Both the position numbers and the translations under genes were made by a program. From Candidatus Omnitrophota bacterium (GTDB lineage: Bacteria; Omnitrophota; Gorgyraeia; Duberdicusellales; 4484-171): a stretch of DNA of 54,674 nucleotides. Below the pieces are notes generated by a model. The model saw only the letters and a list, made by a program, of their open reading frames with translations. It had not been told where the DNA came from and made no database searches. Where the stretch lies: contig JBDRDJ010000008.1 of assembly GCA_043820815.1 (NCBI GenBank), forward strand, positions 1 through 54,674. Direction: 5' to 3'. Below are positions 2,122 to 43,933 of the stretch, piece by piece (positions within the stretch are counted from its first letter, which is position 1; every line of letters starts with the position of its first letter).

Positions 2122-2150
2122 TTGACTAAATAAAAAAGAAATAGTGTAAT
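2122..2150 (+). promoter_or_regulatory. Sigma-70-type promoter of the HTH/pilus operon
   Basis: TTGACT (2122-2127), 17 bp, TGTAAT (2145-2150); SD AGGAG at 2203-2207 precedes the ATG at 2217. Confidence 0.55.
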
Positions 2151-2160
2151 GTTAGTATAG

Positions 2161-2210
2161 TCAGGCAATGTCAAGGCGTACCGAAGTGTACCAAGCACTA
2201 TCAGGAGTAG
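2161..2210 (+). repeat. Five imperfect 10-bp phased direct repeats (candidate operator)
   Basis: TCAGGCAATG/TCAAGGCGTA/CCGAAGTGTA/CCAAGCACTA/TCAGGAGTAG, lying between the -10 box and the start codon. Confidence 0.6.
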
Positions 2211-2216
2211 TATAAT

Positions 2217-2399
2217 ATGGTAAAGAAGTATTTTGGCGTGAATGATGTAGTCCAGAGGCTTGGTATTTCAAGGCAGACATTGCTAAGATATGAGAAAAGA
2301 GGGATTTTTCCAAGGCCAAAAAGGAACTGTGTAAATCACTGGAGAGAATATACCGATATAGAAGTAGACAGCCTAAAACAAATATTAGGCAGATTTTAA
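2217..2399 (+). CDS. Stand-alone MerR-like/Xis-like winged HTH protein (copy 1)
   Basis: 60 aa; V...LGISRQTLLRYEKRG...P.RN..NHWREY; no dimerisation or effector domain; good SD. Confidence 0.85.
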   Translation: MVKKYFGVNDVVQRLGISRQTLLRYEKRGIFPRPKRNCVNHWREYTDIEVDSLKQILGRF

Positions 2400-2422
2400 A
2401 TGAGGCAGCATCTTTTGCCGAG

Positions 2423-2442
2423 CCCTTCGGTAATACTCAGGG
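2423..2442. repeat. CCCTTCG...CTCAGGG REP-like element
   Basis: CCCTTCGGTAATACTCAGGG; 18/20 identical to 47674-47693; flanked by CTTTTGC/GCAAAAG. Confidence 0.6.
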
Positions 2443-2494
2443 TAAACTCCGCGAGAGCAAAAGTGCGTAGCCGAATTTAAAACAAAATTTCTTT

Positions 2495-2671
2495 ATGAAG
2501 TATTATAGTGCCCAAGAAGTTGCCCAGAAGCTCGGAATTTCAAAGCAGACTCTCCTGCGTTATGAGAAAAAAGGTATTTTTCCGCACCCTAAGCGTAATT
2601 TAGTAAATCACTGGAGAGAATATTCGGAAAAAGATCTGGAGAAGCTTAAAATAATTATTGGCAGAATATGA
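2495..2671 (+). CDS. Stand-alone MerR-like HTH protein (copy 2; missed by ORF track)
   Basis: Hand translation MKYYSAQEVAQKLGISKQTLLRYEKKGIFPHPKRNLVNHWREYSEKDLEKLKIIIGRI (58 aa); 36/57 aligned residues identical to copy 1; ATGA overlap with the gene at 2668. Confidence 0.9.
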   Translation: MKYYSAQEVAQKLGISKQTLLRYEKKGIFPHPKRNLVNHWREYSEKDLEKLKIIIGRI

Positions 2672-3096
2672 AGAAAGTTACATTAATTTTATTATTTCTG
2701 CTTATTATTTTTCTACTGATTGAATGCATTCTTAGAAAAAGTTTTATTCCGGCTTATTGTGAATCTTTTTTAAATAAGAAGGTTTCTTCGGGCACTACAG
2801 AAGCCGATAATTTGCCGGATAGAACAAATGTCAAAAGCGAAAGCTTAACGGCATTAAGAAACCCTTTTTTAACGGCCGAAGAGCAGAAAGTAACTAATGA
2901 GCGGGAAATTATTGATTATTTACCGATATCAGGTGTTTTCCAATCGCCCGGCCGTTCGTATGTTATTATCAGCGGCCGCATCCTTAAAGTAAACGATACG
3001 ATTGACGGTAAAGAGATAGTTTCTATTGATAAAGAAAAAGTTATACTTAGGGATTTGCAAGGCGAGGCGGAATATATATTATTTCTAAATAAATAA
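2668..3096 (+). CDS. PilP/GspC-like assembly protein
   Basis: N-terminal hydrophobic anchor, RNPF motif, beta-rich C-terminus (ISGVF....SYVIISGRILKVND.IDG); sits next to the secretin genes. Confidence 0.5.
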   Translation: MKKVTLILLFLLIIFLLIECILRKSFIPAYCESFLNKKVSSGTTEADNLPDRTNVKSESLTALRNPFLTAEEQKVTNEREIIDYLPISGVFQSPGRSYVIISGRILKVNDTIDGKEIVSIDKEKVILRDLQGEAEYILFLNK

Positions 3097-3098
3097 TT

Positions 3099-3953
3099 AT
3101 GCGCTGTTTTAGTAAACATTTAATTATTCCTTTATCTTTCTTGGCCTGCTTCTGTGTTTGTTTGATGGCCCAAGATATTAAAGAAAGTGAAAAACTTACA
3201 GAGGCACAATTAGAAAGCCAGAGCAATGACAAGGATTTAAAGAGCCAGGGCGGTGTTGAAACAAATTCATTTTCCCGGCAGGGAATAATAGCGATAAACC
3301 AGTCAGAAAAAGATGCGGCTTTGTTTTCAATCGAGCTCAGAGATGCGGAATTAGTCGATCTTTTCAGGGTATTGGCTCACGACTATAATCTTAATATTAT
3401 GGCCGATAAGGCCGTAGAAGGTAAAGTAACCGCGAGTTTAACCAATATTTCATTAAATGAGGCACTTCTGCGCATTGCCGATTTGCATAATTTAATCATA
3501 GAAGAACAGGGCAATGTTTTAGTTGTAAAGCCAAACCTGAAAACAAAAGTTTTTATATTAAAACATGTAGAAGCCAAGATATTACTTAATCAGAGTGTTT
3601 TTTCAAATCAAACACCATCGAATAGCGCTAATTTACAGGCATCATCTCCGGATTCATCAACAACCGGGCAAGCTCAGCAAGAGAAGAAAGAAGCAAATAT
3701 TTATGATCTTCTTTCTGATCAAGGTAAAGTTTTACTCGGCACTCAGCCAAACTCTCTTCTTGTGATTGACTACCCCGATAATTTAAAAAAGATCGATATT
3801 TACATTTCAACGATAGACAAAGGCATGGCGAGCAGAATATTTAAGCTTAAATATATAAGTGCTCAGGATATAGTAAAAAGCGGGCAGAAAAATACCGTTT
3901 CATCTGAAACCAAAGAGGTTACAGCCCAGAATATTTCCGGGCAGGATTATTAA
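3099..3953 (+). CDS. Secretin N-terminal-domain protein (STN/N0 plus N3-like), no barrel
   Basis: Signal peptide; FSIELRDAELVDLFRVLA...VEGKVTASLTNISLNEAL (N0/STN); N3-like segment; ends at 284 aa. Confidence 0.75.
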   Translation: MRCFSKHLIIPLSFLACFCVCLMAQDIKESEKLTEAQLESQSNDKDLKSQGGVETNSFSRQGIIAINQSEKDAALFSIELRDAELVDLFRVLAHDYNLNIMADKAVEGKVTASLTNISLNEALLRIADLHNLIIEEQGNVLVVKPNLKTKVFILKHVEAKILLNQSVFSNQTPSNSANLQASSPDSSTTGQAQQEKKEANIYDLLSDQGKVLLGTQPNSLLVIDYPDNLKKIDIYISTIDKGMASRIFKLKYISAQDIVKSGQKNTVSSETKEVTAQNISGQDY

Positions 3954-3956
3954 ATT

Positions 3957-5534
3957 ATGAAGCACACAGTTAAGGTTATATCTTTTTTTCTAATTTTAGT
4001 TTTATTTATTTATTTCTCCGGCTATGCAGGCGTTGCCTCGGACGTAAATGAGTTACTTTCAAGCCAGGGAAAAGTTCTTTTTGGCCAGGAACCCAATTCA
4101 ATTTTTGTGATTGACTATCCCGAAAATATAAAGCGAATTGACGATTACCTGGCAATGGTTGATACTCCGCCCCAGCAGGTTCTTATCGAAGCAAGGGTTG
4201 TTGAGGTCAAATTAGAATCAGAAAACGCTTTAGGTATTAACTGGACGGCCTTCAGCGATTCTCCTTTTTTAATAGGAGAGTATACGATAGGAGGGTCGAG
4301 CTCAACAAGCCCTATTGAACAAAACATAGATTACAAATCTACGGTTTATCCGCCCTTAAGCACAAGCGGAACACAAGAGGCCCCTTTTACCCTTACGATA
4401 TTCGATGAAAATATAAATGTTGTTCTTAGGGCATTGGCCAATTCTTATAACACAAATATCCTTTCAGCCCCCAGAATAACAACTGTTAATAACCGTGAAG
4501 CTGAAATCAAAATTATTCAGAAATTACCCTGGGCAGAGCCGGTGGTTGAGATGGTTGAAACAAGTATTGCGATAACATGGAATATTAATTTTGAAGAAGT
4601 AGGGATAATCCTAAGAGTTACCCCCACAATAACCGAAGACGGGCAAATTTCAATGGAGCTTCAGCCTGAAGTCAGCGAAAAGGTCAGTGATTACAGCCTA
4701 TCGGTTGTTCAGGGAACTACCGAGATTCCCTATACGGTTCCTGTTATTGACCGGCGCACCGCAGATACAAAAGTCGTTGTAGGCAACAGCCAGACTCTTA
4801 TTATCGGCGGCCTAATCAAGGAAAAACTAATAGAAGGTGAGACCAAGGTGCCCTTTTTAGGCGATATCCCGGGGTTAGGGTGGCTTTTTAAGAGTAAAAA
4901 AGATACAAAGGAAAAATCCGAGCTTTTAATTTTTGTATCTCCTACAATTATTACCCAGAAAGTTGTGAAAGAAATGCAAAGCAGCGAGGAATTGGATATT
5001 GGCAAGTGGTATATGGATGAGCGAAAAAAGAAAAGAAATGAACTGCTCGAGAAGATGGAAAACAAGGAAAGTGGCAGTATTGTCAGCGTTAGCAATGAGG
5101 AAGTTAGAAAGCAGGATTTATTGGATAATAAAAAAACACAAGCCAAACTTAAGAACGATAAAGAAATTTTACAGAAATATGAGGATGAGATACTCAAATT
5201 AAACTTAAGAGCCGAAGAAGCAAAAAAAGCATATGATACTCATATTGTAGAGTTAAAGAGGGAAATTGATAAAGAGAATTCTGCAAGAAAGGCCACTGAG
5301 AAAAACATCAAAGAATCTGAAGAAAAATCTCGTTTTGCCAAAGAGGCTTATGAGGCCAGGGTTAAGGATTTAGAGCGTAAAATTTCTCAAGAGATCCAAA
5401 CGCGTGAAGAATCAGAGAATCTGCTTTCTGAAATAAAGAAGAGTATTCTTCAAGGCCAGGCAGCTGCGCCGGTTGAAGATGCTGACAATATGGAAAGATC
5501 AGAAGAGGTAATAGATCAGAAGAAAAATAAATAA
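3957..5534 (+). CDS. Secretin (PilQ/GspD family) barrel protein with C-terminal coiled-coil extension
   Basis: QVLIEARVVEV, ILSAPRITTVNNREA.I, GIIL.VTP.I, IIGGLI, KVPFLGDIP.LGWLF, ELLIFVSPTI motifs; own signal sequence. Confidence 0.9.
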   Translation: MKHTVKVISFFLILVLFIYFSGYAGVASDVNELLSSQGKVLFGQEPNSIFVIDYPENIKRIDDYLAMVDTPPQQVLIEARVVEVKLESENALGINWTAFSDSPFLIGEYTIGGSSSTSPIEQNIDYKSTVYPPLSTSGTQEAPFTLTIFDENINVVLRALANSYNTNILSAPRITTVNNREAEIKIIQKLPWAEPVVEMVETSIAITWNINFEEVGIILRVTPTITEDGQISMELQPEVSEKVSDYSLSVVQGTTEIPYTVPVIDRRTADTKVVVGNSQTLIIGGLIKEKLIEGETKVPFLGDIPGLGWLFKSKKDTKEKSELLIFVSPTIITQKVVKEMQSSEELDIGKWYMDERKKKRNELLEKMENKESGSIVSVSNEEVRKQDLLDNKKTQAKLKNDKEILQKYEDEILKLNLRAEEAKKAYDTHIVELKREIDKENSARKATEKNIKESEEKSRFAKEAYEARVKDLERKISQEIQTREESENLLSEIKKSILQGQAAAPVEDADNMERSEEVIDQKKNK

Positions 5535-5561
5535 TGAAATTTTTTTAAGGAGAAAATCCCC

Positions 5562-7259
5562 ATGGTTCAGGAATCTAATGGCAGAAGATTAGGCCCTGAT
5601 AAGAAGATCGGAGATCTTCTTATTGAGCAGGGATTTGTAACTTCCCAGCAGTTGGTTGAGGCGTTAGAGGAACAGAAGGTAACAGGAGAAAAGCTTGGGC
5701 AGGTCTTCGTGCGAAAAGGGTGGGTTAGCGCTGAAGACTTAAGCCGTATTTTAGCAATGCAGACAGGCGTCAGCACATTTGACCTTTCCAATTATATTAT
5801 TGAACCGGATATTGTGTTGTTAATACCTCAAGAAGTTGCCTTGAAATATAAGGTGATACCTGTTTTTAAGACAGGAAATACTTTAACCGTAGCCAGTGCC
5901 GATCCGACTAATGTATTTGTAATAGACGAACTACAGCGTTTAACCGGCTGTATTATAGAGCCGGTATCGGCCGATGAGATGGCTGTGCGTAAGGCGCAGG
6001 ATCAGTATTACGGGCCAGGAGGAACTGTTAAGGAGCTTGTGGCTTCGATTGATAGGGATAAGCTTAAAGAAGGCGATAAAATGGGGGAAGATGCTCCCAT
6101 TGTAAGGCTCGTTAATACTCTAATAATAAAAGCCGTTCAGGCAAGTGCTTCAGACATACATATTGAGCCTGAAGAGAAGTATGTGGGCGTAAGGTACAGG
6201 ATTGACGGAATCCTGCACCACCAGGATTTTATTCCAAAGGATTTACAGCCGGCTATACTTTCGCGCATTAAGATAATGGCCGCTCTTGACATAGCCGAGA
6301 AAAGAATTCCTCAAGATGGGCGCATACTTATGAGAACAGGCAATAAAGATATTGATTTTCGTGTATCAACATGCCCTACGATTCACGGAGAGAATATGGT
6401 TTTAAGAATTCTTGACAGAAGTAATATGGTTTTAGGCCTTAATAATTTAGGCTTTTCCCCGGAAAACCTTAAATCCTTCGAAGAAATTATTTTACAGCCC
6501 TACGGAATAATTTTAGTAACCGGCCCCACGGGAAGCGGCAAAACCACAACTCTTTACTCTGCTCTTCAAAAGATAAATCGCGAAGACATAAATATAATGA
6601 CCGTAGAGGACCCGGTTGAGTATCATTTTCCCCAGATCAGGCAGGTTCAAGTTAACCCTAAGGCAGGGTTAGTTTTTGCTTCTGCTTTGCGTTCTTTCTT
6701 GCGGCAGGATCCCGATGTGATTATGGTCGGTGAAATCCGCGATGCAGAAACAGCGGAAATTGCAGTGCAGGCGGCATTAACAGGGCATTTAGTTTTATCG
6801 ACCCTTCATACGAATGATGCTCCGTCATCATTTACAAGGCTTATGGAAATGGGCATAGAACCGTTTTTGGTGTCAAGTTCATTGCTGGGAGTGCTTGCCC
6901 AGAGATTGCTAAGAAAAATTTGCCAAAAATGCAAGCAGGATTTTTATCCTTCGGAAGCTGTGATAGAAACTTTAGGGCTAAACGATAAAATAAAAGGGGC
7001 TATAAAATTAAGCCAAGGAAAAGGCTGTAAAATATGCAACAATACGGGTTATAGAGGGCGCATAGGAATTTATGAATTTCTTGAGGTAACACCTGTAATC
7101 CATGATTTGGTAATAAAGAAATCATCCGCAGATGAGATAAGAGAAATTGCCAAACAGCAGGGAATGATAATGCTCAGAGAAGCCGCGCTTGAGAAGCTTT
7201 TAAAGGGGGTAACTAGCCTTCAGGAAGTGATGCGGGTAACTCAGTCTACTGTAGAATAG
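5562..7259 (+). CDS. PilB/GspE-family assembly ATPase with MshEN-like N-terminus
   Basis: Walker A GPTGSGKT, ASDIHIEP, LRQDPDVIMVGEIRD, STLHTND, CxxC...CxxC zinc motif. Confidence 0.95.
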   Translation: MVQESNGRRLGPDKKIGDLLIEQGFVTSQQLVEALEEQKVTGEKLGQVFVRKGWVSAEDLSRILAMQTGVSTFDLSNYIIEPDIVLLIPQEVALKYKVIPVFKTGNTLTVASADPTNVFVIDELQRLTGCIIEPVSADEMAVRKAQDQYYGPGGTVKELVASIDRDKLKEGDKMGEDAPIVRLVNTLIIKAVQASASDIHIEPEEKYVGVRYRIDGILHHQDFIPKDLQPAILSRIKIMAALDIAEKRIPQDGRILMRTGNKDIDFRVSTCPTIHGENMVLRILDRSNMVLGLNNLGFSPENLKSFEEIILQPYGIILVTGPTGSGKTTTLYSALQKINREDINIMTVEDPVEYHFPQIRQVQVNPKAGLVFASALRSFLRQDPDVIMVGEIRDAETAEIAVQAALTGHLVLSTLHTNDAPSSFTRLMEMGIEPFLVSSSLLGVLAQRLLRKICQKCKQDFYPSEAVIETLGLNDKIKGAIKLSQGKGCKICNNTGYRGRIGIYEFLEVTPVIHDLVIKKSSADEIREIAKQQGMIMLREAALEKLLKGVTSLQEVMRVTQSTVE

Positions 7260-7309
7260 GTTTTGTTTGTTGCGTAAATTATTTCATTAATATATAAAGG
7301 AGGTGAGTG

Positions 7310-7453
7310 ATGGCAAGCTGGAAAAAGAATAAATTAGTCGGGTTAGTTGCAGGTATTATTATAATAATTGCAATAGCTTTAATTGCAAAAACAATTTTGT
7401 CAGGCCAAAACAGTAAAGTTCCTTCAGTCGAAGAGCAAATTAAAGGAATTTAA
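7310..7453 (+). CDS. Small single-pass membrane protein (47 aa; missed by ORF track)
   Basis: Strong SD AAGGAGGTGA (7297-7306); MASWKKNKLVGLVAGIIIIIAIALIAKTILSGQNSKVPSVEEQIKGI. Confidence 0.7.
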   Translation: MASWKKNKLVGLVAGIIIIIAIALIAKTILSGQNSKVPSVEEQIKGI

Positions 7454-7477
7454 GGTTTTAATAGGAGGTGCATTTTT

Positions 7478-7966
7478 ATGAAAGTCAAGGCTTTTACACT
7501 TATAGAACTTATGGTTGTTGTTGCGATAGTGGGAATGCTGGCGGCAGCATTGCTTCCTTCAATAAGCGGCATAATGGATAGAGCCCGTGTTGCAAAAGCA
7601 GAGGCAGAGGTGCGTTCTATTGCAAACGCTATCTTAGCTTTAAATCAGGATACGGGATTGTGGCCTGCCGGCAATGTTCAGGGTTCCGCGCTTAACGGTG
7701 CTAACATGGGCCTTATTTCCAGAAATGCCGCTCTGTGGCCGGCGACTTGGGACGGGCCTTATCTTGAGAAAAGTATAGGTAATGGAGGAGATGGCCTTGA
7801 TCCTTGGGGCCGGGCATATGTATATGATGGCGGGGAAGCTGGTTCCGGACAAACCTGTATTGCAAGCGTCGGCCCCGATGGGGTTATTGCTTCTTACAAT
7901 AGAGCTGATCTAACCGCACAGGGAGATGATATTATCGTTTATTTTAATCAGCGCAATCCCCGATAG
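7478..7966 (+). CDS. GspG-like major pseudopilin/pilin
   Basis: KA|FTLIE class III signal; W.GPYL, DPWG..YVY and S.GPDG motifs typical of GspG; SD GGAGG. Confidence 0.85.
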   Translation: MKVKAFTLIELMVVVAIVGMLAAALLPSISGIMDRARVAKAEAEVRSIANAILALNQDTGLWPAGNVQGSALNGANMGLISRNAALWPATWDGPYLEKSIGNGGDGLDPWGRAYVYDGGEAGSGQTCIASVGPDGVIASYNRADLTAQGDDIIVYFNQRNPR

Positions 7967-7975
7967 TTTATTAAG

Positions 7976-8518
7976 ATGCAAAACCTTTGCAATAAAAGGG
8001 AAATCCCTTGTATCAAAGTAAATGGTCTTTATGGGTTTACGCTTGTTGAAATGGTTGTTGTAATCGGTATTCTGGGGTTAATTTCTGCGGCAAGTATAAT
8101 ATCTTTTTGGCGCCTTGCTCCCAAAAGACTAGATGCCGAAGCCAGGATGGTTGTCGGAGATATATCCTGGGCTAGAGACATGAGCCTGGCCCGCCAAACT
8201 CAATATATTGTTAATTTCGATACAGCCGCCGATGAATATACTATTTACAACCAAAGCATTAACCCCGTAAATTTAATTTTACGCAAGAAGCTTCAAACCG
8301 ATATAGTTTCAATACAGCCTTCCCCGGAAAGTATAGTTTTTAATCCTCCCTTTGGAAACTCTCAGTCAAAACAAATTGATTTAAGTTTCCAAGGGTATTC
8401 CAAGGAAATTTATATCTTTGGCGATACCGGATATGTAAGGGCACAAGACTCACAGCTTGCGACTCCCAGTTTTTCCGGCCAATCCGGCGGTAAAGGACAA
8501 GCCAAAGGCCAGCGATAG
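7976..8518 (+). CDS. Minor pilin, GspH/FimT-like
   Basis: G|FTLVEMVVVI prepilin motif. Confidence 0.75.
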   Translation: MQNLCNKREIPCIKVNGLYGFTLVEMVVVIGILGLISAASIISFWRLAPKRLDAEARMVVGDISWARDMSLARQTQYIVNFDTAADEYTIYNQSINPVNLILRKKLQTDIVSIQPSPESIVFNPPFGNSQSKQIDLSFQGYSKEIYIFGDTGYVRAQDSQLATPSFSGQSGGKGQAKGQR

Positions 8519-8535
8519 AAAGAGAAAGAGGCGGT

Positions 8536-8907
8536 GTGAGAGTGGGCCAATCAAAAATGAACTTTAGCTTAATTGAAGTAAGCGTTTCGCTTTGTGTTTT
8601 AGTTTTAATTCTCGCCGGCCTATTCAGGGTTCTTTATCAGGGTTTTAATTCAGTAGATAAATCCAAGACAAAAACTATTGTATATGGCCTTATAAGAGAA
8701 AAGCTTGAAGAAAAGTGCGCCCAATATTGCTGGCCTCCCTTTTCAGAGCCGCGCCAATCCGTAAGCGGCTTTACAGGGCTTGAGCGACAAGTTATTACTA
8801 CACGTCCTTATCTGAGTTATAACGATTTAGCCCATATTCAAGTTACAGTCTGGTGGAATAACGGCACTCAATCGGAATCTTTAGAGACATTATGTGCTGA
8901 TTATTGA
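8536..8907 (+). CDS. Minor pilin, GspI/PilV-like
   Basis: N|FSLIEVSVSL (non-canonical residue at -1); C-terminal V.VTV.W strand; operon position. Confidence 0.6.
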   Translation: MRVGQSKMNFSLIEVSVSLCVLVLILAGLFRVLYQGFNSVDKSKTKTIVYGLIREKLEEKCAQYCWPPFSEPRQSVSGFTGLERQVITTRPYLSYNDLAHIQVTVWWNNGTQSESLETLCADY

Positions 8908-8964
8908 AATTTATCCATTCGCCTTAAAAGAAAACGGGTATGTAAGGATTAATGTTCCCCGCGC

Positions 8965-9546
8965 GTGAGCTTTAAGCCCATGATTATTAAAAAAGGATTT
9001 ACCCTGCTTGAGATAATGGTTGCACTTACGGTATTTACGCTTGTTATTTCTGCGGCCGGGTCTATATTTGTTTCGGTTGATAGAGCATACAAAAAACAAG
9101 TTGATTCGGTTGAGTTGATTCAGAATCTTCGCTGGGCATTAGAATATATGGCTAACGAAATAAGGTATTCCGCTGTATCTTCAAATCCCGGGTGGGCCAG
9201 CCTTGGGGTTATTGCTAACGGAAGGACACTTCGTTTTGGAATAGATACAAATAGTGATAATGACCCTGATACCTGGGTGGAATACAGCAGAGAATCTAAT
9301 ACGTTATCACGCAGATGGCGGGATCATCCGGCAGGTGGCGGCTGGGGGCCTTATCAGGAGATTGCTAATTATATTGTTGATAATCCTGACCTCTTAGACA
9401 ATTCAAACGGTTTTGGCCTCCCTGACGGAAGAGCCGACCCAATATTTATGCAGAGCGGAAACGATGATTTATTAACAATAGAGTTAACCGCGCAAAAGGA
9501 TAATCTGGTTTATACAAAAAGAGTAAGGGTAAAACCTCGAAACTGA
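8965..9546 (+). CDS. Minor pilin, GspJ/PilW-like
   Basis: KKG|FTLLEIMVAL; LE.MA.EIR motif. Confidence 0.75.
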   Translation: MSFKPMIIKKGFTLLEIMVALTVFTLVISAAGSIFVSVDRAYKKQVDSVELIQNLRWALEYMANEIRYSAVSSNPGWASLGVIANGRTLRFGIDTNSDNDPDTWVEYSRESNTLSRRWRDHPAGGGWGPYQEIANYIVDNPDLLDNSNGFGLPDGRADPIFMQSGNDDLLTIELTAQKDNLVYTKRVRVKPRN

Positions 9547-9552
9547 TTCACC

Positions 9553-9960
9553 ATGATAAAATCTCAAGCATTGTTATTTGTTTTGTTTTTACTTCTTTTG
9601 GCAGGTATTTTTATAGTTTCACTTTCGGGAATGTGGCAGTCAGAAATATTGTCACGCAGTGAAGAGAAATATTCAACAGCGGTTTTCTATCTTGCCCAGG
9701 GAGGAATCGAGAGGGCTAAAATTGAAGCAAAAAACGGCGTAGTTACGGCTCCGGCCTGGAGCGGCCCGTTTGTTTTAGGTACAGGCAGGTATTTTTTTTA
9801 TATTGAGGATATCGGATCCGGAGAAAGGCTTATTCGTTCAGCCGGCGAGATTTTAGATTCATCAGGCAACATAATAGCTCGAAGGCAAATACGCCAGGAA
9901 GTTGAATCTGCGGCAACCCCTGATCCCCGGATTAAAAGCTGGAGCTGGCGGCAGGAATAA
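9553..9960 (+). CDS. Minor pilin, PilX/GspK-like
   Basis: QA|LLFVL without Glu5; A.YLAQGGIERA motif typical of PilX N-termini. Confidence 0.65.
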   Translation: MIKSQALLFVLFLLLLAGIFIVSLSGMWQSEILSRSEEKYSTAVFYLAQGGIERAKIEAKNGVVTAPAWSGPFVLGTGRYFFYIEDIGSGERLIRSAGEILDSSGNIIARRQIRQEVESAATPDPRIKSWSWRQE

Positions 9961-9996
9961 CCTAACAAAGATTTTTCGTCTAACGTTAACGTAAAT

Positions 9997-10118
9997 AAAT
10001 CAAAAATCAAATATCAAAAATCAAAATGACAATGTAAAAATCAAAATTAAAATATTTAAATCTAAACTTTTTGAATTTTAATTTGTCATTTTGATATTTA
10101 CATTTTGATTTTTAATTT
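9997..10118. repeat. Heptamer-built (AAAATCA) long hairpin element
   Basis: Arms 9997-10046 and about 10068-10118 pair at 41/50 positions; the left arm recurs at 54431-54470. Confidence 0.8.
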
Positions 10119-10162
10119 AAAAACGGGTATCGCCCTTATAATAATAAATCCAGAGGTACTAC

Positions 10163-11371
10163 ATGCCCCAATATAAGTATACTGCAAGGGATAGCAAAGG
10201 GAAAATCATTCGCGGTGTTGTTGAGGCGGTCAGCGAAGCTGATTTGGCAGAAATGATTTCTCAATCAGATAGATATTTGACGGGATTTAAGGCCATGCCC
10301 GAGGAATCACCTAAGTCTAAGGTTAAGCCTTCTTGGATGAAGCCAAAAGAAACCCTGCAGTTTACTATTCATTTGGCCACCTTAGTCGATTCGGGCCTTC
10401 CGCTTCTTGATGGTTTAAGAGATTTAGCTAAAGAGGCGCAGAATGAGAGAGTTCAGCAGGTCATTGACAATATCCGGTATCATGTGGAAAGCGGCAGTTC
10501 TTTAAAGGAAGCAATATCCCGCCACCCAAGGACATTCTCCAAACTATACGAAGCCTTGGTCGATACCGGTGAAAGTACAGGTAAACTTGCACAGACTCTC
10601 AACAGCTTAGCAAATCTTCTTGAATGGCAATTAGACCTAAGAGTGCGCATCAAAGAAGCCTCGACATATCCGGCAATTTTATTTTTTGTTATGGTTTCGG
10701 TGGTTTGCCTTATGATAATTCATGTAATACCTATTTTTGAGCCTATATTTACCCAGGCAGGAGTAGCCCTGCCGGCAGCAACCCAGATTATTTTAGGTAT
10801 AAGTCATTTTTTACGTTCTTTCTGGTATCTTATCCTTGCTGTAATAGTTATGATTCTTCTAGGGTATAAATTCTGGAAATTAACCGAAAGAGGCCGTTAT
10901 ATTATCGATAGTATAAGGTTGAGAATACCTGTTTTTGGCGAGCTGATTCGAAAATTATCGCTGTCTCGTTTCACCCAGACATTTGCCTTAAGTTTTAAGG
11001 CAGGAGTGAACCTCCTAAACTGTTTGGATATTTCCAGCAAAACCTGTGCCAACGCACGAATTGAAAATGCAATTCTAAAAGCAAGAAGTTCTGTAAATGT
11101 GGGAGAGAAACTCGCTGCTTCATTTAAAGCTACAGGTGAGTTTCCTGTGATGGTTGTGCGCATGATAGAGGTGGGGGAACAATCCGGGGCTTTAACCCAG
11201 ACTCTATTTAAAGCAGCAAGTTTTTATGATAAAGAAGTAGCTTCCGACATAAAAAGAATATTCTCCATCATTGAGCCGGCAATGATTGTTATAATGGGTG
11301 TTGTGGTCGGGGGTATTTCTTTAGCTATTTTTCTACCCCTGTTTAAAATGGCGAGTATTATCGCCGACTAA
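10163..11371 (+). CDS. PilC/GspF inner-membrane platform protein
   Basis: MPQYKYTARDSKG, GESTGKL, TYPAIL, MIEVGEQSGAL, IIEPAMIV motifs; two F domains. Confidence 0.95.
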   Translation: MPQYKYTARDSKGKIIRGVVEAVSEADLAEMISQSDRYLTGFKAMPEESPKSKVKPSWMKPKETLQFTIHLATLVDSGLPLLDGLRDLAKEAQNERVQQVIDNIRYHVESGSSLKEAISRHPRTFSKLYEALVDTGESTGKLAQTLNSLANLLEWQLDLRVRIKEASTYPAILFFVMVSVVCLMIIHVIPIFEPIFTQAGVALPAATQIILGISHFLRSFWYLILAVIVMILLGYKFWKLTERGRYIIDSIRLRIPVFGELIRKLSLSRFTQTFALSFKAGVNLLNCLDISSKTCANARIENAILKARSSVNVGEKLAASFKATGEFPVMVVRMIEVGEQSGALTQTLFKAASFYDKEVASDIKRIFSIIEPAMIVIMGVVVGGISLAIFLPLFKMASIIAD

Positions 11372-11387
11372 TGAATAATTTAAATAA

Positions 11388-11409
11388 TAGAAGCGGATAT
11401 CCGCTTCTA
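11388..11409. repeat. REP-like perfect palindrome
   Basis: TAGAAGCGGATATCCGCTTCTA, perfect 22 bp. Confidence 0.75.
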
Positions 11410-11426
11410 CAACAAATAATAATCAT

Positions 11427-13235
11427 ATGGCTGATTTAATTGGAATTGATATAGGCGTTCGATTTGTAAGAGGAGTTGTACTTTCGCAACGGCCAAAACA
11501 ATCAATCTCTGATATTTTCTTTTTTCCTACCCCTTTTTCAAACGTTTCATCTGCCCGGGAAATTGATGCGAAACAATTCTTCGATAAAATTACATCGTAT
11601 GTGCCTTTAGAATTCTTAAAAAAAGCGCAAATAGGAGTTAATATACTTTCGTCCTTGGTTACGGTCAGCGTTGTTTATTTGCCAAAGATGAGCAAGAAGG
11701 AGTTAGATATTGCAGTTATTGCAGAAGCGCGCAGAAAAATGATTCCGCCTCCGGGGCCAAACAGTGTTTTTGAATATTCTATTTTAAGCGAGGTGGCTAT
11801 AGATAATGTTGTCAGGTATGAAATTCTTGTAATTAAAACAGAGCGCCATTTCATAGAGGAAGTTTTAAGAATATTTAAACCGTTTGCGGATATTAGCCCT
11901 TTCTTTATAGGCCCTACATGTTATGCGATTATAAATTCACTCGCTTACGACCCTCAAGCGCAGCAAAAAGATACAGCAATTATTGACCTTGGTTATGATT
12001 CAATAGATATCGCTATTGCCAAAAAAGGAAAATTATATTTCTACCGCAACATTAACTTTGGATTAAAGAATATTATTTCTAATATAGCCGGATCTCTTGC
12101 TATAGACTTTCAAGAAGCCGAAAAGGTTATTAATGATATAGGGGTTCCTAAAGTCGATATTGATCTGTCGGATAAAGTGAGAGTTGCCGAAGAAATAATG
12201 CGCCAGAAGTATGAACTCCCCCAATACGAAGCCGGCCATAAAGATGTAAATGTTCTTGAGCTGAGAGTTTTTTGGAACACACAAATAGAAAGAGCTATAC
12301 ACGAAATAAGAAGGACGCTTCATTATTATAGTGAGCAGACAGGAAAAAGAAGAGTTGAAGATGTTCTTTTCTTAGGAGAAGGCTCTTTAATACAGGGGTA
12401 TGTGCCTTCTATTATCAAAGAAATCGGCGGTAACAGCCGGCTATACAATCCATTTGAAGCGGTAAATGTCACTTTAGAAGGCCAGAAGTCTAAAATATTG
12501 CAAGATAGCATTTCAGTATTTGCGCCCGCATTTTCCATCGCTAAAAGCATGACAACCGGTAAGAAGATGCAAGGAGAGATTAATTTCTTACCTTCCGGGC
12601 TTAAGAAACGTAATCAAAGAATTCAGAATCAAATATTGCTTACAGGTTTCGGTATTTTTATGGTTTGTTTTATTTTTCTGGCTTGGTTTAAAGTTTTTGT
12701 TAACAATTATGCCCTCAAAGCTTCTTTAGAAGGCAAGCGGGCCGAAATAGAAAAAGCTAAAGGAATAATTTCAACGCTCGATGGGCTTAAATCAGAAAGA
12801 GAAAAAATAGATATTCGAACCAGCAAGGTTGGTGAAATCGTTAAGCAGAGAGTCAATATATCGCAAGCGCTTAATCAGGTAGCCAGCCTTATGCCCGGTG
12901 ATGTTTTCTTAGAAACGTTAACTATATCCAAAGGCGCAAGCTCAACCGTTTTATCCGGCAATACGGCTCAAGTAAGCCGGGGAGATATTTCCACGGGTAA
13001 GTCTTATGCTATATCGCTTACGGCCAGATGTTTTTCTGATTACGAAACCGCCGTTCGACTTGCCGATGAATTTAGGAAACGGCTGGAGGATGATAATAAT
13101 TTCGTTAATGTAAATTTGCTTTATCCTGACATTGAAAAGATTTCGCCTGTTATTGAAAACCAGAAAGAAATTTCCCTTACTCAGCCTAAACTAAGAGAGT
13201 TTAATTTAAGTGCAGAGCTTGTAATTAGAGATTAA
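11427..13235 (+). CDS. PilM-PilN fusion (GspL-like architecture)
   Basis: Actin-like GIDIG and AIIDLGY motifs, EIRRTL.YY, INFLP, then a TM helix, a coiled coil and the PilN-like LMPGDVFLETLTI. Confidence 0.8.
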   Translation: MADLIGIDIGVRFVRGVVLSQRPKQSISDIFFFPTPFSNVSSAREIDAKQFFDKITSYVPLEFLKKAQIGVNILSSLVTVSVVYLPKMSKKELDIAVIAEARRKMIPPPGPNSVFEYSILSEVAIDNVVRYEILVIKTERHFIEEVLRIFKPFADISPFFIGPTCYAIINSLAYDPQAQQKDTAIIDLGYDSIDIAIAKKGKLYFYRNINFGLKNIISNIAGSLAIDFQEAEKVINDIGVPKVDIDLSDKVRVAEEIMRQKYELPQYEAGHKDVNVLELRVFWNTQIERAIHEIRRTLHYYSEQTGKRRVEDVLFLGEGSLIQGYVPSIIKEIGGNSRLYNPFEAVNVTLEGQKSKILQDSISVFAPAFSIAKSMTTGKKMQGEINFLPSGLKKRNQRIQNQILLTGFGIFMVCFIFLAWFKVFVNNYALKASLEGKRAEIEKAKGIISTLDGLKSEREKIDIRTSKVGEIVKQRVNISQALNQVASLMPGDVFLETLTISKGASSTVLSGNTAQVSRGDISTGKSYAISLTARCFSDYETAVRLADEFRKRLEDDNNFVNVNLLYPDIEKISPVIENQKEISLTQPKLREFNLSAELVIRD

Positions 13236-13245
13236 AATAATTTTT

Positions 13246-13905
13246 ATGGAAGGTACGCGTTTTTTAAAACTCCTCATCGTAATATTCTTTTTGTCATTTT
13301 TTTATTTCTTTCTTGCCCAGTTAAAGGTTAATACCAATTTAAAGAAAGAATTAAGGCAGGCAAGCCAAAAGATTAATAATGCAAAAGAAGCCAGACAAGA
13401 GCTGGATAAACTAAAGACAGAAATTGCAGCTATTGAAGAGACAGCAGGCCGCATAGAGGAAAGAATTCCGACAAATGAAGATAAACCCCTTAAATTAATA
13501 AGAGAGATAACTCATTTAGGCAGCCGGTTAGGCGCCAGGAATATGGAGTTCATTTTCGAAAATGAAACTAACGCACAGCCTTCCATGGACAGCCTTAAAC
13601 AAAATAATAATAACAGCCTATATCAGGATGGAAGTTATGCTTCATCAGGCAGCGAATATGCCGAATCCGCTTCATCCCGATTTCCATCGGAGGCTATTAA
13701 CGGGGCCCAGCAAAGAATAAGGCCAATACTTATTAAAATTAATTTTGAAAGCCAGTACCACGCTTTAGTCAATTTTGTAAAAGAACTTCTTAAAACACAA
13801 CGGCTTGTATTTATTGAATATGTCAATATCGAACGCATGCCCGGTGCTTATCCCCGGCAGAAAGTGAGTATGACTCTAGTCACTTATACATTCGTTTCTC
13901 AATAG
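13246..13905 (+). CDS. PilO/GspM-like protein
   Basis: N-terminal TM, coiled coil, I.I.FES.YHALVNFV..L....RLV.IE.V.I ferredoxin-like pattern. Confidence 0.75.
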   Translation: MEGTRFLKLLIVIFFLSFFYFFLAQLKVNTNLKKELRQASQKINNAKEARQELDKLKTEIAAIEETAGRIEERIPTNEDKPLKLIREITHLGSRLGARNMEFIFENETNAQPSMDSLKQNNNNSLYQDGSYASSGSEYAESASSRFPSEAINGAQQRIRPILIKINFESQYHALVNFVKELLKTQRLVFIEYVNIERMPGAYPRQKVSMTLVTYTFVSQ

Positions 13906-43917: not shown

Positions 43918-43933
43918 TGGCACGAAAAATGCT
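43918..43933 (+). promoter_or_regulatory. Sigma-54 (-24/-12) promoter
   Basis: TGGCACGAAAAATGCT versus consensus TGGCACG-N4-TTGCW, one mismatch. Confidence 0.75.

Follow-up and report, generated by a model that had tools for sequence, protein, structure and literature searches.

What five short direct repeats, spaced 10 bp apart between the promoter and the Shine–Dalgarno sequence of a small MerR-type gene, might contribute to the control of the operon behind that gene is the question raised by the Omnitrophota DNA analysed here (54,674 nucleotides in all, referred to below as the window). Bacteria of this phylum are uncultured; they are often tiny and may depend on a host. Their T2SS/type IV pilus-like machines are believed to have a central part in how they live, although, to our knowledge, nothing is known of how these machines are regulated. 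The initial annotation of the window had placed the repeats at 2161–2210 and had read them as a DNA element with all sites on one face of the helix, suited to a cooperative protein filament that represses or bends its own operon. We have compared this leader with those of related genes across the phylum, modelled the small protein encoded behind it, and weighed the possible readings of the array against one another.

Repeat array and promoter in the window

The promoter is of the sigma70 type and was read from the sequence; the repeats that follow it are given in the register of the family unit, nnnTATCARR, which is derived below from related leaders.

2122–2127, forward strand: -35 hexamer, TTGACT
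2145–2150, forward strand: -10 hexamer, TGTAAT
2156–2165, forward strand: repeat unit 1, TATAGTCAGG; weak (-1.3 bits against the family matrix), in register with units 2–5 and holding the core TCAGG
2166–2175, forward strand: repeat unit 2, CAATGTCAAG; 4.9 bits (family matrix built without the window)
2176–2185, forward strand: repeat unit 3, GCGTACCGAA; 1.9 bits (family matrix built without the window)
2186–2195, forward strand: repeat unit 4, GTGTACCAAG; 8.6 bits (family matrix built without the window)
2196–2205, forward strand: repeat unit 5, CACTATCAGG; 9.0 bits, with a perfect TATCARR core, overlapping the Shine–Dalgarno sequence AGGAG at 2203–2207

The two hexamers are separated by a 17-bp spacer, and orthologous promoters carry TTTAAT, TACACT or TACAAT as the -10 hexamer at equal spacing; CTTGAC is present in 46 of 73 related leaders, a 26-fold enrichment. 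A consensus promoter scanner missed TGTAAT because it demands A at position 2.

At 2161–2210 the sequence is identical to that quoted in the initial annotation, and the five 10-bp repeats claimed there are borne out by comparison with relatives. The YCRRG core that had been described as recurring every 10 bp corresponds to the 3' halves of the family units, but unit 3, which reads CCGAA, does not fit it. Similarly, the array had been said to start about 10 bp after the -10 hexamer, which holds for the first core but not for the first unit, already only 5 bp away. The last unit does supply the Shine–Dalgarno sequence, as had been proposed, CAGG of unit 5 together with AG giving AGGAG, and the same overlap of repeat unit and ribosome-binding site, TATCAGGAG, is found at L039, L044, L047, L062, L069, L070 and L079. 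The window array is nevertheless a rather degenerate copy, with four credible units and one weak one, and a perfect TATCA in one unit only.

When the 50 bp at 2161–2210 were compared with themselves, identity at lag 10 was 19/40 (0.47), and every other lag from 1 to 20 gave 0.35 or less. Shuffling, which the initial annotation had named as a check, yielded a significant result (mononucleotide shuffles, p = 0.0012 for lag 10 and p = 0.0099 for the best of lags 5–15), yet the signal is weak taken alone: 350 of the 54,624 50-bp windows in the same 54.7 kb equal this lag-10 score. By itself, then, the periodicity at 2161–2210 is only marginally beyond chance, and the count of 350 is what speaks for regarding it as a chance or compositional trait of an AT-rich leader.

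Two short palindromes, CTATATATAG and CCCCAATAGGG, lie at 2053–2090, approximately 35–70 bp upstream of the -35 hexamer, and the second of them was called terminator-like by a scanner. They are found again at the corresponding place in about 10 of 71 related loci (CCCAATATATTGGG is one example), and may serve as a further operator or as terminator of the gene upstream.

Conservation of the array in related leaders

Homologues of the 60-aa protein encoded by the first gene were collected from 41 related genomes, each of another genus and 24 of them holding such a homologue, and a further 74 loci were taken from species-representative genomes, nearly all labelled Omnitrophota; 73 leaders were analysed. 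The closest relative for fine-scale conservation in genome and metagenome collections had 66% protein identity. Conservation in orthologous leaders, another check that had been proposed at the outset, proved to be very strong: the same 10-bp array was found there, and the orthologues share a leader layout in which a near-consensus promoter is followed by tandem direct repeats. TATCA is present in 60 of the 73 leaders, a 7.8-fold enrichment, and two copies lie 10 bp apart in 31 pairs and 20 bp apart in 10 pairs, with no pair at 9 or 11 bp. Distances between copies of ATCA[AG] are just as regular (10 bp in 38 cases, 20 bp in 14 and 30 bp in two, with no others below 29 bp). The reverse complement of the motif is not enriched in the 73 leaders, so that the repeats are confined to the sense strand. 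Iterative refinement of a matrix gave the family unit nnnTATCARR (approximately 8 bits; T.82, A.96, T.87, C.70/T.27, A.93, A.68/G.27, R), of which each leader holds two to six, always in the orientation of the gene.

The period is also evident without reference to any motif. Mean self-identity of 71 leaders peaks at lag 10 (0.405), lag 20 (0.385) and lag 30 (0.349) over a level of about 0.27–0.31 at other lags, and control regions 400 bp upstream and 300 bp downstream average approximately 0.26 for the first two of these three lags and 0.29 for the third. When the window's assembly (1.57 Mb, both strands, 3.14 million positions) was scanned with a matrix built from 193 sites of other genomes, the window itself being excluded, the window array ranked first for three, four and five in-phase units. 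Elsewhere in that genome three-unit arrays were absent except for one borderline match at C27:874, and no second array was found upstream of the pseudopilin genes in the window.

Comparison with relatives thus settles what the weak periodicity alone could not, and on this ground we take the array at 2161–2210 to be real. The spacing counts, the lag profile and the genome-wide matrix rank refute an origin in chance or composition, which we consider to have practically no probability given a phylum-wide array of exact 10-bp spacing, its first place in the genome by an independent matrix and the lack of signal in control regions. As far as sequence comparison can establish it, the array is conserved phylum-wide with a period of exactly 10 bp and one orientation, phased to the promoter and private to one gene family, and it is very probably a conserved, promoter-anchored DNA element.

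The mini-MerR genes and the downstream operon

The array is followed by two tandem genes for very small MerR-like proteins and by a long operon.

2217–2399, forward strand: mini-MerR 1, a 60-aa stand-alone MerR-type winged helix and the proposed binder (Pfam MerR_1 1.5e-7, MerR 8.6e-7; AlphaFold2; Foldseek)
2396–2480, forward strand: stable hairpin between the two paralogues (dG -26.4 kcal/mol, z -2.68, 2/200 shuffles as stable)
2495–2671, forward strand: mini-MerR paralogue of 58 aa, more canonical and 63% identical to the first (Pfam MerR_1 1.1e-10)
2668–13905, forward strand: T2SS/type IV pilus-like operon (Pfam Secretin 1e-45, T2SSE 1e-141, T2SSG, N_methyl, T2SSF 4e-54, PilM_2, PilO)

The operon encodes a PilP/GspC-like protein, a split (two-part) secretin, a GspE/PilB ATPase, pseudopilins, GspF/PilC, PilM-N and PilO. 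The stop codon of the 58-aa paralogue overlaps the start of the next gene (ATGA), and the paralogue has no promoter or array of its own. The hairpin between the paralogues is not followed by a T-run; it might serve in processing or stability, or as a partial attenuator.

The AlphaFold2 model of the 60-aa protein (pLDDT 83) comprises beta-H-H-wing-H only and ends after helix 3, with no coiled coil, and Pfam and NCBIfam match the protein only to the N-terminal HTH part of MerR models. Foldseek matched the model to MerR wHTH domains, BldC in its DNA complex (6ama), RacA and the excisionase RdfS; for the 6ama chains the TM score was 0.64–0.69 (rmsd 2.3 A over 54–55 columns, 20% identity), and classical MerR N-domains scored equal to or above them. 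A profile search of PDB sequences at E≤1 returned RacA, CarA-N, TnrA and many MerR proteins, and BldC was absent from the matches at that threshold. As modelled, the 60-aa product is thus folded as a MerR-type winged helix that stands alone. The family to which it belongs numbers 1,271 proteins at E≤1e-8, which are annotated only as hypothetical or MerR-family.

Tandem duplication with an array before the first copy only is seen in the window (2217–2671) and at L032 (G014), and L148 is the second gene of another tandem pair; mixed filaments of such paralogues are a possibility. The ORF from 44018 encodes a third MerR-like wHTH, only distantly related to the others (37% identity to the first). 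It lacks a TATCA array, and a sigma54-type -24/-12 element, TGGCAC-N5-ATGCT (GG-N10-GC), lies at 43918–43933, approximately 85 bp upstream of it.

Association of the array with the mini-MerR gene

When both strands of each locus of about 3 kb were scanned, the best array of the whole locus lay on the strand of the mini-MerR gene and no more than 170 bp ahead of its start in 61 of 73 cases. A strict three-unit pattern, TATCAR-N4-TATCAR-N4-TATYA, searched in 85 genomes of the order, gave four matches against none in the control, and all four were directly upstream of a mini-MerR ORF; with one mismatch allowed there were 18 matches against two in the control, 10 of the 18 upstream of a mini-MerR ORF. 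Two of these 18, both from one genus, are intergenic before a TonB-like gene: at L132 and L133 (G042:C20:3104-3129 and G043:C44:5330-5355) a three-unit TATCA array stands approximately 220 bp before a TonB-C-terminal-like gene with no mini-MerR ORF within 1.5 kb, and may be an additional target or a relic. Two-unit matches in the 41 genomes exceeded a backwards control, and 21 of the 27 checked sit inside ORFs; those away from the mini-MerR gene look like chance. No wider regulon was found in the three-unit genome scan, in the two-unit scan of 41 genomes or at the pseudopilin genes of the window.

The array accompanies the wHTH gene into varied contexts, namely a secretin operon, PilZ with an ATPase (L049), PilM (L037, L093) and an in-frame pseudopilin, and is found also at separate paralogous loci on one contig. 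A further association concerns the second position of the recognition helix, directly behind Ser-Lys (ISK-Q-T). Gln stands there at 69 of the 73 loci with leader sequence; of the best 120 homologues 117 could be read, and 116 of these have it as well. The four exceptions among the 73 loci are Lys (L024), Glu (L082), Ser (L088) and Arg (L092). A canonical array is present at none of these four loci, against 59 of the 69 with Gln (Fisher p 0.0009, phylogeny ignored), and three of the four carry variant 10-bp repeats, for example TATAGTCAA/CTATAGCAGG or GTGACAGG/GTATGAAG. By its adjacency, the privacy of the array and this four-locus covariation, the adjacent mini-MerR is the obvious candidate for the protein that binds the repeats.

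Action as DNA or as RNA

On one alternative reading the repeats work at the level of the mRNA leader, where an RNA-binding protein would bind them in tandem, cover the Shine–Dalgarno sequence and control translation or stability, in the manner of CsrA or TRAP. Such a role would suit several features of the locus, in that the entire window array is probably transcribed, the last unit includes the Shine–Dalgarno sequence here and in at least seven other loci, and the repeats keep to the sense strand. The position of the array across related leaders points the other way. Counted from the start of the -35 hexamer, the first unit lies most often at 28 bp, where the -10 hexamer ends (a sharp peak of 17 loci), with further groups at 36–44 bp and at 7–8 bp; 33 of 56 leaders have a register of 7 or 8 (mod 10) relative to the -35 hexamer. 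The distance from the end of the array to the start codon, by contrast, ranges from 0 to 127 bp. Because it is anchored to the promoter and not to the start codon, the array is expected to act as DNA. Moreover, in the 7–8-bp group (L052, L055, L057–L059, L037, L077 and others) the units fill the spacer and cover the -10 hexamer, and therefore cannot be in the transcript.

Nor did searches at the RNA level return a candidate. Rfam 15 at the gathering threshold gave no match across the whole window and the leader folds no better than its shuffles (z +0.31), on which grounds a structured RNA element was rejected. CsrA-type control was likewise rejected: csrA (PF02599) had no match in the 77%-complete genome, control genomes being positive, and GGA, present in the last unit only of the window array, is not conserved in the units. 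A DNA operator covering the -10 hexamer, the start site and the early transcribed region is favoured by the anchoring to the promoter, seeing that neither RNA structure nor a csrA gene was found, and we consider action in the mRNA leader very unlikely.

Two other explanations at the level of DNA were considered. Curvature from phased A-tracts was rejected by inspection, since the window units (TCAGG, TCAAG, CCGAA, CCAAG) are without A-tracts and the conserved part is a base-specific TATCA. Repeated -10-like elements causing sigma70 pausing seem unlikely, as TATCAA and TATTAA lack the essential T at -7.

Proposed operator function and alternatives

Our current working hypothesis, to which we assign a probability of roughly 0.6 on the basis of sequence comparison, the structural model and analogy, is that the array is a private direct-repeat operator on which the adjacent mini-MerR would form a head-to-tail filament, similar to those of BldC and Xis, and thereby repress its own expression. 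The same-face DNA element envisaged in the initial annotation is supported by the direct repeats in one orientation, their rigid 10-bp spacing, their number of two to six and their tie to the promoter; that the adjacent mini-MerR product is the binder, that it binds cooperatively and that repression is the outcome, we infer. The strong sigma70 promoter (TTGACT-17-TGTAAT) would drive the two tandem mini-MerR genes and then the T2SS/type IV pilus-like operon, and the five head-to-tail 10-bp units at 2156–2205, reaching from about the transcription start to the ribosome-binding site, would form the operator. One mini-MerR monomer is predicted to occupy each unit, in uniform orientation and touching its neighbours, as in BldC, Xis and Apl; protein–protein contacts of this kind would be in keeping with a spacing of exactly 10 bp and never 9 or 11. 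The resulting short nucleoprotein filament would extend over about +1 to +50, or from the spacer in other lineages, and block the binding or escape of RNA polymerase, so that through negative feedback the regulator would control both its own amount and the level of the secretion/pilus operon. Points against this reading are that unit 1 scores below zero and other window units are degenerate, and that the overlap with the Shine–Dalgarno sequence would also suit a role at the RNA level.

The array could also be a DNA operator for another protein that binds tandem repeats, such as a response regulator of the OmpR/PhoB type or a dedicated regulator shared by pilus and secretion operons, the mini-MerR being merely the first gene of the operon. 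It is established that the OmpR/PhoB family binds head-to-tail repeats with 10–11 bp spacing (PMC5859096), and a shared regulator is suggested by the downstream contexts of the array, every one of which is pilus- or secretion-related, as well as by the one genus with an array but no mini-MerR nearby. However, strict three-unit arrays were found only before mini-MerR genes, including same-genome paralogues at separate loci and the pilin-fused form described below; where the recognition-helix residue is changed, the motif is changed or lost; and response-regulator activator sites normally lie upstream of the -35 hexamer and not over -10 to +50. We therefore regard a binder other than the mini-MerR as unlikely. 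A different matter is whether a mini-MerR filament would repress at all, or would activate, or only bend or organize the promoter in an architectural role such as that of Xis or RacA. Xis-type proteins are architectural (PMC12266134), and BldC both activates and represses and strongly distorts DNA (PMC5859096 and, in part, PMC6428758). A near-consensus promoter with an optimal 17-bp spacer needs no activator, however, and sites over the -10 hexamer, the start site and the early transcribed region occupy the classical position for repression, so that activation or mere bending without repression appears quite unlikely.

On our preferred reading of autorepression by the adjacent mini-MerR, this study supplies a concrete cis-element, with its consensus, its register and its position relative to the promoter, and a candidate 60-aa regulator of a pilus/secretion operon. 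It would also be a good system in which to study cooperative filaments of mini winged-helix proteins, given its sequence-specific motif, its exact 10-bp register, and a repeat number and one recognition-helix residue that vary naturally between loci.

A pilin-fused form in sister lineages

At 8 of 74 related loci (L039, L044, L047, L062, L063, L069, L070 and L079) the winged helix makes up residues 1–56 of a longer protein, which continues in frame into a prepilin motif and the GspH/FimT-like body of a pseudopilin. These genes each start at about 1492–1498 and encode 212–220 aa, with Pfam matches to MerR_1 and N_methyl and a prepilin cleavage/methylation motif, G|(F/M/I)(T/S)L(I/V)E(L/M), so that the DNA-binding domain occupies the usual place of the prepilin leader peptide. 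Approximately 39 protein clusters have this fused architecture, and pilin fusions, too, are found behind TATCA arrays. The window's genome holds free copies only and no fusion.

This arrangement suggests that in the fused lineages the prepilin peptidase frees the regulator. A more far-reaching proposal, which we put forward tentatively and regard as possible but rather doubtful, is that the array is the target of a factor made in two forms, either free, as in the window, where the tandem paralogues would perhaps form mixed filaments, or as the cytoplasmic 'leader peptide' of about 56 residues of a GspH/FimT-like prepilin. The domain, released by the peptidase whenever a pseudopilin matures, would bind the same type of array at its own promoter and so couple assembly of the pilus/secretion machine to transcription, the window locus would represent the free-form version, and the repeat number of two to six would set the steepness of the switch. 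If confirmed, the link to the pilin fusion would constitute a new way to couple the assembly of a machine to gene expression.

Comparison with known systems

A full-text search of the literature found no paper on this Omnitrophota system. Classical MerR proteins (MerR, CueR, BmrR) have a homologous N-terminal winged helix-turn-helix, as indicated by Pfam and by the top Foldseek matches. They are coiled-coil dimers that bind a palindrome within a 19–20-bp spacer and activate by untwisting, whereas the mini-MerR lacks a coiled coil and its candidate sites are direct repeats, which in the window follow the -10 hexamer of a promoter with a 17-bp spacer.

Excisionases and Apl-type factors (lambda Xis, Pukovnik Xis, phage 186 Apl) resemble the system in its proposed manner of binding, being small winged-helix monomers that polymerize on direct repeats about one helical turn apart. 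Apl also represses promoters (PMC12266134), and RdfS was among the structural matches of the 60-aa protein. Unlike an excisionase gene, the mini-MerR gene has no integrase, att site or mobile element nearby; its neighbours are cupin, TPR, lipoprotein and T2SS/T4P genes, and it is the conserved chromosomal head of a secretion/pilus operon across the phylum, with pilus-gene synteny kept across genera. The MerR-like mini protein Gp36 of phage D29 represses via direct repeats near promoters and shows weak self-association (PMC12266134), but it is phage-encoded and its GC-rich GCGGC motifs are irregularly spaced, at 15–19 nt.

There is also a likeness to BldC of Streptomyces (68 aa, PDB 6AMA/6AMK), a protein of similar fold (Foldseek TM 0.64–0.69) that likewise consists of a MerR-type winged helix alone, with neither coiled coil nor effector domain. 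On its targets, direct repeats of 9 bp that vary in number, BldC assembles head-to-tail into cooperative multimers and bends the DNA (PMC5859096), and the candidate operator described here, on which binding is predicted, likewise consists of direct repeats in variable number (two to six) and one orientation. The two systems also differ. There is no detectable sequence homology beyond the generic MerR HTH, with structural identity of 20%; the BldC unit is 9 bp, AATTXXXX(C), AT-rich and largely read by shape, whereas the unit here is exactly 10 bp with a base-specific TATCARR; and BldC governs a large regulon, whereas the array here is private to the regulator's own promoter. Should our reading be true, the mini-MerR of Omnitrophota would represent a second, phylogenetically remote case of the unusual binding mode of BldC.
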